Notes: generated by a model from the letters alone, not told the origin. Shown: positions 13,101-53,625, counted from the stretch's first letter. The stretch: 64,000 nucleotides of DNA from Escherichia coli (GCF_024502345.1 NZ_JALDNN010000001.1); one strand, 5' to 3'. Made by a program: numbers and translations.

Positions 13101-13808
<708 letters not shown>

Positions 13809-13891
13809 TGCTTTCAGCCCGCGTTGTCGCGGGCTTCCCATCTATAATCCTCCCTGATTCTTCTCTGATATGGTGCTAAAAAGTAACCAAT

Positions 13892-13913
13892 AAATGGTAT
13901 TTAAAATGCAAAT
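13892..13913 (+). promoter_or_regulatory. putative NsrR operator in yeaR promoter
   Basis: aaatggtatttaaaatgcaaatt resembles NsrR consensus AANATGCATTTNAAATGCATNTT. Confidence 0.4.
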
Positions 13914-13980
13914 TATCAGGCGTACCCTGAAACGGCTGGAATAAACCGTTTTCAGCGCATTCACCGAAGGAGGGAAAAGG

Positions 13981-14340
13981 ATGCTGCAAATCCCACAGAA
14001 TTATATTCATACGCGCTCAACACCTTTCTGGAATAAACAAACTGCGCCTGCCGGAATATTCGAACGTCATCTTGATAAAGGAACGCGCCCGGGGGTTTAC
14101 CCACGCCTTTCCGTTATGCATGGGGCGGTCAAATATCTCGGCTACGCTGATGAACACAGTGCAGAGCCTGATCAGGTGATCCTTATCGAAGCGGGGCAGT
14201 TTGCGGTGTTCCCTCCAGAAAAGTGGCACAACATTGAAGCCATGACTGACGATACTTATTTCAACATTGACTTCTTCGTGGCTCCTGAAGTCCTGATGGA
14301 AGGTGCGCAACAACGGAAAGTCATTCATAACGGGAAATGA
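13981..14340 (+). CDS. yeaR: DUF1971 protein
   Basis: 119-aa ORF. Confidence 0.85.
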   Translation: MLQIPQNYIHTRSTPFWNKQTAPAGIFERHLDKGTRPGVYPRLSVMHGAVKYLGYADEHSAEPDQVILIEAGQFAVFPPEKWHNIEAMTDDTYFNIDFFVAPEVLMEGAQQRKVIHNGK

Positions 14341-14343
14341 ATC

Positions 14344-14526
14344 ATGGGTAAAGCAACGTATACCGTGACCGTCACCAATAACAGCAATGGCGTTTCTGTC
14401 GATTATGAAACAGAGACGCCGATGACTTTGCTGGTGCCAGAAGTGGCGGCTGAAGTGATAAAAGATCTGGTGAATACCGTGCGTTCTTATGACACGGAAA
14501 ACGAACATGATGTTTGTGGTTGGTAA
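14344..14526 (+). CDS. yoaG: DUF1869 small protein, 60 aa
   Basis: ORF 3 bp downstream of yeaR, implying co-transcription. Confidence 0.8.
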   Translation: MGKATYTVTVTNNSNGVSVDYETETPMTLLVPEVAAEVIKDLVNTVRSYDTENEHDVCGW

Positions 14527-14673
14527 TTATCACTGATCGTTGATGGCGTAATTTCTGCGCCATCGCAAAAAAATCCTCCGTGATGCTCGTCACAAATCTT
14601 GCCCTCCCGATGTTGTGCTATGCTTTTTATCAGCGACTAACCCGCTAATGCAAAACAGATAAGTGAGGAAACA

Positions 14674-14922
14674 ATGGGCATTCTGTCATGGATTATTTTT
14701 GGGCTTATTGCCGGTATTCTGGCGAAGTGGATCATGCCAGGTAAAGATGGTGGTGGATTCTTTATGACTATCCTGCTGGGGATAGTCGGTGCCGTAGTCG
14801 GCGGTTGGATCAGCACGCTGTTTGGCTTTGGTAAAGTCGATGGCTTCAATTTTGGCAGCTTCGTGGTTGCCGTTATTGGTGCGATTGTCGTGCTATTTAT
14901 CTACAGGAAGATTAAAAGTTAA
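14674..14922 (+). CDS. yeaQ: GlsB/YeaQ/YmgE family small membrane protein
   Basis: 82-aa glycine-rich hydrophobic ORF. Confidence 0.88.
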   Translation: MGILSWIIFGLIAGILAKWIMPGKDGGGFFMTILLGIVGAVVGGWISTLFGFGKVDGFNFGSFVVAVIGAIVVLFIYRKIKS

Positions 14923-53268: not shown

Positions 53269-53625
53269 AGTCGCTGCCATTTATTCAGATAAAGAGTGCG
53301 TGGATGGTAGCAGAATTTCGCTTTGCTTACCGCCTGTTGTTAAGTGATTTGATCGATGGTTGTTAATGATGTCAACGATGGCGCAAAAAATGCCCGCTTT
53401 TGGTGCGAGCTGCGTCAGAATGGCGCAGTAATTTCCAGTAAATTTCGTCAATGATCACAATTCCAGAATTATATTTTACTTCTGCATAACATTGCGTTTT
53501 TTATTCTTTTTATTCACTCACATCGCAAACGTATTCACTTAATATGCACTTTAAATGTATATGGTTTGGTTATAACTCCTTGATTTCCAGTTAGCCTCCG
53601 CGGTTTATGCACTTTCATCACTGGC

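Follow-up and report, generated by a model that had tools for sequence, protein, structure and literature searches.

A known NsrR operator lies over the core promoter of the Escherichia coli yeaR-yoaG operon, and the inverted repeat beside it is not supported as a leader hairpin

The window analysed here is a single strand of 64,000 nucleotides of Escherichia coli DNA (GCF_024502345.1, NZ_JALDNN010000001.1). Its positions 13700-14600 matched E. coli chromosomes with identities of up to 100%, and the annotated genes leuE, yeaR (DUF1971) and yoaG (DUF1869) are all carried on the + strand. A DUF1869 gene was found downstream of yeaR in other genera too. In an alignment of 13870-13995 with E. coli K-12 MG1655, the promoter and the leader showed no mismatch between a point upstream of the NarL site and the ATG; a single synonymous change, in the second codon of yeaR, was the sole difference. 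The locus in the window is the same as that of the K-12 yeaR-yoaG promoter, with no difference of substance; the published NarL and NsrR strings both match. This K-12 promoter has reportedly been studied by Lin, Bledsoe and Stewart in 2007 and by Squire et al. in 2009. We consider it highly probable that this stretch holds the control sequences of the E. coli yeaR-yoaG operon, organised as described below for its promoter, its operator and the apparent hairpin. The features are listed in Table 1.

Table 1. Coordinates of the genes, promoter elements and predicted structures at the yeaR-yoaG locus (window positions)
Feature	Position	Strand	Description and basis
NarL (phospho-NarL) 7-2-7 activator site, TAACCAATAAATGGTA	13884-13899	+	identical to the string in PMC10853779
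NsrR operator, AAATGGTATTTAAAATGCAAATT	13892-13914		11-1-11 imperfect inverted repeat, AAATGGTATTT-A-AAATGCAAATT; no strand; matrix score, published string, conservation
-35 hexamer, TTTAAA	13900-13905	+	weak; abuts the NarL site; -43.5 numbering, 17-bp spacer to the -10 hexamer
-10 hexamer, TACCCT	13923-13928	+	-12 to -7; kept in orthologous promoters
Inverted repeat, CTGAAACGG (13927-13935) / CCGTTTTCAG (13946-13955)	13927-13955	+	9 pairs with T13952 bulged; -7.8 kcal/mol; -8 to +21
Putative transcription start (+1), G	13935	+	from the -43.5 centre of the NarL site and the G-initiated transcript (PMC10853779)
Predicted 7-bp stem-loop, GCUGGAA (13935-13941), loop UAAACCGU, UUUCAGC (13950-13956)	13935-13956	+	minimum-energy fold; -8.6 to -8.7 kcal/mol
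Possible second hairpin, GCAUUC (13957-13962) / GGAUGC (13979-13984)	13957-13984	+	predicted; pairs the AUG, with the Shine-Dalgarno sequence in the loop
Shine-Dalgarno sequence, AAGGAGG	13967-13973	+	7 nt before the ATG at 13981; read from the sequence
yeaR	13981-14340	+	119 aa, DUF1971/TehB-like, PF09313; ORF, RefSeq annotation and Pfam
yoaG	14344-14526	+	60 aa, DUF1869, PF08956; second gene of the operon; ORF and annotation

The string TAACCAATAAATGGTA consists of two heptamers 2 bp apart and matches the experimentally defined NarL site of yeaR. In the cryo-EM study of NarL and RNA polymerase on the yeaR promoter (PMC10853779), this 7-2-7 site is centred at -43.5, 'just upstream of the -35 element', the -35 element is described as intrinsically weak, and the transcript is initiated with G at +1. 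The promoter numbering in PMC7419079 and PMC4549865 is consistent with that study. With the NarL site at 13884-13899 centred at -43.5, position -43 corresponds to 13892 and +1 to G13935, which gives a 5' UTR of 46 nt and falls at position 1,879,994 on the minus strand of K-12 NC_000913.3. Moreover, a -10 hexamer of the form TA(A/C)(C/T)CT was kept in 25 of 25 Escherichia, Citrobacter and Salmonella promoters, and this invariance supports the assignment independently of the literature numbering. We thus infer the start site from the -43.5 numbering in three later papers together with the conserved -10 hexamer. No strong sigma-70 promoter came out of a consensus scan, which fits a promoter that needs an activator. 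The Cappable-seq supplement (PMC4782308) held no entry at K-12 positions 1,879,993-1,879,995 or for yeaR, and in the supplements of Kim et al. 2012 b1797 appeared in an orthologue table only, with no yeaR start given. Probably yeaR was silent in the growth conditions of those start-site studies.

The sequence-only reading had proposed an NsrR-like inverted repeat, AAATGGTATTTAAAATGCAAATT, upstream of yeaR, and both its position and its identity held. A symmetric weight matrix was derived from 19 other published 11-1-11 sites (PMC5320621, Table 4), with the yeaR site left out to avoid circularity. The yeaR 23-mer scored 23.05 bits, the highest value in the 64-kb window (next best, 15.5 bits), and lay inside the range of 13.4-31.9 bits spanned by the 19 training sites. 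No site reached 23.05 bits in 200 random 64-kb sequences. The exact 23-mer is given in Table 4 of PMC5320621 as the predicted 11-1-11 NsrR site of yeaR. The proposed control by nitrosative stress through NsrR was likewise borne out by the literature: the passages of PMC5320621 that concern the gene state that yeaR is known to be NsrR-regulated, and those of PMC4959519 place yeaR-yoaG under NarL and NsrR, in both cases after Lin et al. 2007. Additionally, PMC5320621 reports an induction of approximately 160-fold for yeaR and yoaG in nitrate-grown CFT073. The NsrR ChIP-seq of the same study showed no peak at yeaR in CFT073, which its authors regard as a probable false negative. The evidence supports the NsrR operator of yeaR as one that is already known and published.

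The yeaR site shares the 11-1-11 inverted-repeat architecture of the NsrR operators of ytfE, hmp, hcp and ygbA, and the core common to them is ATG-(C/T)ATTT...AAAT-(G/A)CAT. It agrees with the perfect palindrome of ytfE at 17 of 23 positions; unlike that palindrome, its halves are self-complementary at 8 of 11 positions. Set against these four operators, the yeaR site also differs in overlapping a NarL activator site and the -35 hexamer, and in showing no ChIP-seq peak in CFT073.

Next in rank among the NsrR matrix matches of the window was AATATGCACTTTAAATGTATATG at 53541-53563 (15.5 bits), a score in line with those of weak published sites; it lies approximately 170 bp upstream of an ORF start. 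We take this ORF to be astC, whose control region presumably carries ArgR boxes similar in look to NsrR sites, and the match may therefore belong to ArgR instead of NsrR. The same gene marks a difference from another chromosome. The window matched NZ_CP065615.1 (strain FDAARGOS_943) at 100% over yeaR, and extrapolation along that chromosome places 53.5 kb of the window in topB, whereas the window has the start of astC there. This points to a multi-kilobase insertion, deletion or rearrangement between yeaR and astC relative to NZ_CP065615.1, located somewhere at approximately 14000-53700 of the window.

A scan with the YeaR protein, using one genome per species, yielded 26 usable loci in four genera (Escherichia, Citrobacter, Salmonella and Silvania), and further genera (Yokenella, Lelliottia, Enterobacter, Klebsiella, Leminorella, Rahnella and Buttiauxella) were added through protein homologues. 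The best matrix match per locus was located 84-95 nt before the ATG and scored 15-24 bits in all but one of the 26 loci, the exception being S. enterica subsp. diarizonae with 11.9 bits. Outside Escherichia, Citrobacter and Salmonella, sites of 24.3 bits (Silvania), 22.2 bits (Yokenella), 26.1 bits (Lelliottia) and 19.3 bits (Enterobacter) were found. The NsrR site upstream of yeaR is thereby kept in at least seven enterobacterial genera, namely Escherichia, Citrobacter, Salmonella, Silvania, Yokenella, Lelliottia and Enterobacter, at 15-26 bits and 76-95 nt upstream of the ATG throughout, diarizonae excepted. The matrix found no NsrR site at the Klebsiella, Leminorella and Rahnella loci examined, and the Buttiauxella locus gave a weak match of 10.9 bits only. 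In the alignment of upstream regions, the conservation island extended over 13884-13928, with the NarL site at one end and the -10 hexamer at the other. Identity to the window averaged 0.93 for the NarL site (13884-13899), 0.87 for the NsrR 23-mer and 0.93 for the -10 hexamer (13923-13928), compared with 0.40 further upstream and 0.38-0.68 over the hairpin region.

Several of these loci showed other features of their own. In Lelliottia, Buttiauxella, Leminorella, Rahnella and Enterobacter, the operon often consisted of two DUF1971 (YeaR-like) genes and a DUF1869 gene. In Leminorella, where no NsrR site was detected at the locus, the YeaR-like genes are located directly 3' of a norW-like gene (Pyr_redox and rubredoxin-binding domains), an arrangement that might connect them with the NorR-controlled NO reductase operon rather than with NsrR. 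The YeaR-like gene of Klebsiella pneumoniae CP033396.2 was called from a non-ATG start (ATC) with a shorter product of 101 aa, and no NsrR-like site was found within 800 bp upstream of it; either the gene start is miscalled or the regulation differs in Klebsiella.

Relative to the start site, the NsrR operator spans -43 to -21 with its centre at -32, and it covers the whole -35 hexamer and the promoter-proximal heptamer of the NarL site. Such a placement over core promoter elements is as expected for a repressor, and the overlap with both the NarL site and the -35 hexamer means that repression and activation compete for the same DNA. In our reading, the yeaR-yoaG promoter is a weak sigma-70 promoter (-35 TTTAAA, -10 TACCCT, +1 G13935) that phospho-NarL, bound at the single 7-2-7 site at -43.5, turns on. 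NsrR, an Rrf2-family, iron-sulfur, NO-sensitive repressor, holds the promoter off from its 11-1-11 operator. With the -35 hexamer and the proximal NarL heptamer both under this operator, bound NsrR should leave no room for region 4 of the RNA polymerase sigma factor or for NarL, an occlusion that we infer from the coordinates. NO inactivates the iron-sulfur cluster of NsrR and relieves the block, and the loss of NsrR binding on nitrosylation would make NarL-dependent activation possible. Squire et al. in 2009 reportedly found Fis to be a further competitor for the NarL site. Both this site and its complex with RNA polymerase have been demonstrated in the literature, and NsrR-dependent regulation of yeaR is reported in earlier work, as cited in the relevant passages of PMC5320621 and PMC4959519.

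Downstream of the operator, the sequence-only reading had described a 9-bp stem, approximately 15 bp after the 23-mer and just before the yeaR ribosome-binding site, and had proposed that it acts as a leader hairpin on translation initiation. The complementarity of CTGAAACGG and CCGTTTTCAG is real; however, the arms measure 9 and 10 nt, so that a nine-pair stem needs T13952 to bulge out, and the contiguous perfect runs are of 6 bp. The gap to the 23-mer is 12 bp. From the end of the repeat it is 11 nt to the Shine-Dalgarno sequence and 25 nt to the ATG; the stem terminates at 13955 and reaches neither the Shine-Dalgarno sequence (13967-13973) nor the ATG (13981). Moreover, the left arm (13927-13935) occupies -8 to +1 relative to the literature-derived start and overlaps the -10 hexamer (13923-13928), so it is not contained in mRNA from the yeaR promoter. 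A translational role for this hairpin is not supported.

As RNA, the repeat's stem had a folding energy of -7.8 kcal/mol, compared with -8.6 kcal/mol for an overlapping 7-bp stem in the same 34 nt. The z-score against shuffles was -1.6 for these 34 nt and -0.65 when 81 nt around the repeat were folded, and 13% of arbitrary 34-nt windows in this genome folded at least as well. By these measures neither stem stands out from chance. A gapless inverted-repeat search returned only the repeat behind leuE, the 13927-13955 stem being missed because it needs a bulge. An Rfam 15 scan of 13700-14700 at a permissive E-value identified no family in the leader; its sole match in that interval was a chance tmRNA fragment on the other strand, outside the leader (9 bits, E = 0.32). 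No terminator-like site was found in 13780-14000, and there is no G+C-rich stem followed by a U-tract, the sequence after the repeat's stem being GCGCAUUC.

The repeat was then compared within Escherichia, using the five genomes of the species scan (four non-coli species or lineages and E. coli E69) and five more E. coli strains, of which four permitted a base-for-base alignment. Substitutions were located at 13933, 13943, 13946, 13947 and 13952. The top three pairs of the stem (CGG/CCG) were broken without compensation in 3 of the 6 distinct Escherichia sequences, carried by four strains or species (E. coli E69, E. whittamii, Escherichia sp. E1V33 and strain SCPM-O-B-8794), and 3 of 54 cells were unpaired for the repeat's stem in Escherichia. 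Two-sided compensatory changes were found among the Escherichia sequences neither for this stem nor for the overlapping 7-bp stem, in what is an underpowered test, and covariation therefore cannot decide between the two. Outside Escherichia, no conservation of the hairpin sequence was found in the upstream alignment. A Cra/FruR-like half-site (TGAAAC) in the left arm was also considered and was dropped; the halves are 10 bp apart rather than adjacent, and they are not conserved.

The inverted repeat at 13927-13955 is most likely a chance complementarity with no role in translation. It is very improbable that the yeaR leader RNA folds into the 9-bp stem and that this stem acts on translation initiation. 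The complementarity with its -7.8 kcal/mol, the resemblance of the stem to the centroid structure of the 34-nt RNA fold, and the possibility that it forms in read-through RNA from leuE all speak for such a stem, but they are set against a left arm at -8 to +1 of the published start that overlaps the -10 hexamer, a competing stem of greater stability, the distance from the Shine-Dalgarno sequence and the AUG, the broken CGG/CCG pairs and the lack of sequence conservation in Citrobacter and Salmonella. Translational operators and RNA thermometers, whose leader hairpins sequester the Shine-Dalgarno sequence or the AUG, likewise place a hairpin between promoter and start codon; unlike them, the 13927-13955 stem includes untranscribed promoter DNA, touches neither element and has no Rfam match. 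Read as DNA instead, the repeat (-8 to +21) might be the site of a further transcription factor that blocks the promoter, and CTGAAA and TTTCAG (13927-13932 and 13950-13955), which flank the start site, are indeed invariant in Escherichia. Yet the arms differ among Escherichia in their inner halves, few parts of the intergenic region are less conserved across genera, and the literature that we retrieved on this promoter mentions no such factor, so that we give this reading hardly any credence.

Since leuE lies on the same strand as yeaR, a leuE read-through RNA would contain both arms of the 13927-13955 stem. A perfect 8-bp inverted repeat (AGCCCGCG/CGCGGGCT) is located at 13816-13835, 8 nt after the leuE stop codon. 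This repeat probably terminates leuE, although the sequence behind it in E. coli, TTCCCATC, contains no T-run and the terminator scan made no call; the missing T-run counts toward possible read-through from leuE. The place of this hairpin is kept in Citrobacter and Salmonella with a changed sequence (for example, GGCCCGC...GCGGGCC and GACCCG...CGGGTC).

The overlapping 7-bp stem-loop at 13935-13956, in turn, starts exactly at the putative +1. It was 100% paired in 7 Escherichia sequences, the variation being concentrated in the loop, and in E. coli A42 its G-U pair is replaced by G-C. The Citrobacter leaders (three sequence types) and the Salmonella leaders were each predicted to have a hairpin of their own, 1-4 nt from the predicted +1 and with different stem sequences. 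For most of these leaders, composition-matched shuffles folded equally well in 1-10% of trials. Compared with genomic 34-nt windows, the 5' hairpins had empirical p values of 0.06-0.48 per clade, and Fisher's combined p was approximately 0.04 over clades that are not independent. No 5'-proximal hairpin was predicted in the Lelliottia, Enterobacter and Silvania leaders, despite their conserved NsrR sites. The recurrence of predicted 5'-proximal hairpins in Escherichia, Citrobacter and Salmonella is weakly suggestive of a 5'-terminal stem-loop, and the region may conceivably have some role at the RNA level.

The 5' stem-loop of the ompA mRNA protects against 5'-end-dependent decay, in which RppH and RNase E take part, and by analogy the 13935-13956 stem could be a functional 5'-terminal hairpin that protects the yeaR-yoaG mRNA from such decay. 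Like stabilising stem-loops of the ompA type, it begins at the first transcribed nucleotide as placed here; unlike them, the predicted stem has just 7 pairs, shows no covariation and is absent from the more distant orthologous leaders. That it is the minimum-energy structure of the leader, that its pairs are kept in all 7 Escherichia sequences, with substitutions in the loop, and that Citrobacter and Salmonella place a hairpin near the same point, rarely equalled by shuffles, argue for the protective role. We nevertheless regard this role as rather unlikely: no two-sided change was seen, the energies are ordinary against genomic 34-nt windows, three genera do not have the hairpin, the whole true leader (+1 to +66) had a shuffle z-score of -0.9, and the exact 5' end is deduced from promoter numbering. 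Control of translation by the possible second stem (13957-13962/13979-13984), which would tie up the start codon and leave the Shine-Dalgarno sequence within its loop, appears quite improbable. This stem occurs in both the minimum-energy and the centroid folds of the true leader, and it was 97.9% paired over 8 distinct Escherichia sequences, in which the changes were one-sided only and kept the pairing (C-G to U-G and U-G to U-A). It consists, however, of 6 pairs including one G-U, worth approximately -6.7 kcal/mol (-15.4 for the whole fold minus -8.7 for the first stem), without two-sided compensation; the same pairing was not predicted in the Citrobacter or Salmonella leaders, the leader as a whole is no more structured than its shuffles, and half of the stem is the invariant AUG with its neighbours, conserved for other reasons. 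Taking the leader as a whole, we think it unlikely that a stem-loop starting at the first nucleotide of the yeaR-yoaG mRNA, of conserved position and divergent sequence in Escherichia, Citrobacter and Salmonella, stabilises the transcript, which is very strongly induced, or tunes YeaR translation together with the 13957-13984 stem. Were it so, a post-transcriptional layer would be added to a promoter so far studied only for NarL, NsrR and Fis.

Taken together, the NsrR reading is supported and already known, and the leader-hairpin reading is not supported. The yeaR promoter is a textbook case of a promoter activated by NarL only and repressed by NsrR, and the discovery value is small. It also serves as a part in nitrate and NO biosensors, and the cryo-EM structure of NarL with RNA polymerase was determined on it. 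What is now explicit is the operator geometry, in which NsrR lies across the -35 element and one half of the NarL site. In addition, the apparent leader hairpin straddles the transcription start and thus ought not to be read as an element of translational control when the promoter fragment is reused in synthetic circuits.

One natural variant of the leader was found in E. coli strain 98207 (NZ_CP173539.1), which carries a 27-bp insertion, ATAGGAACGCGCATTCCCCGAAGGAGG, in the yeaR leader after window position 13976. The insertion repeats the GCGCATTC(A/C)CCGAAGGAGG segment, and the Shine-Dalgarno region is thereby duplicated in this strain.
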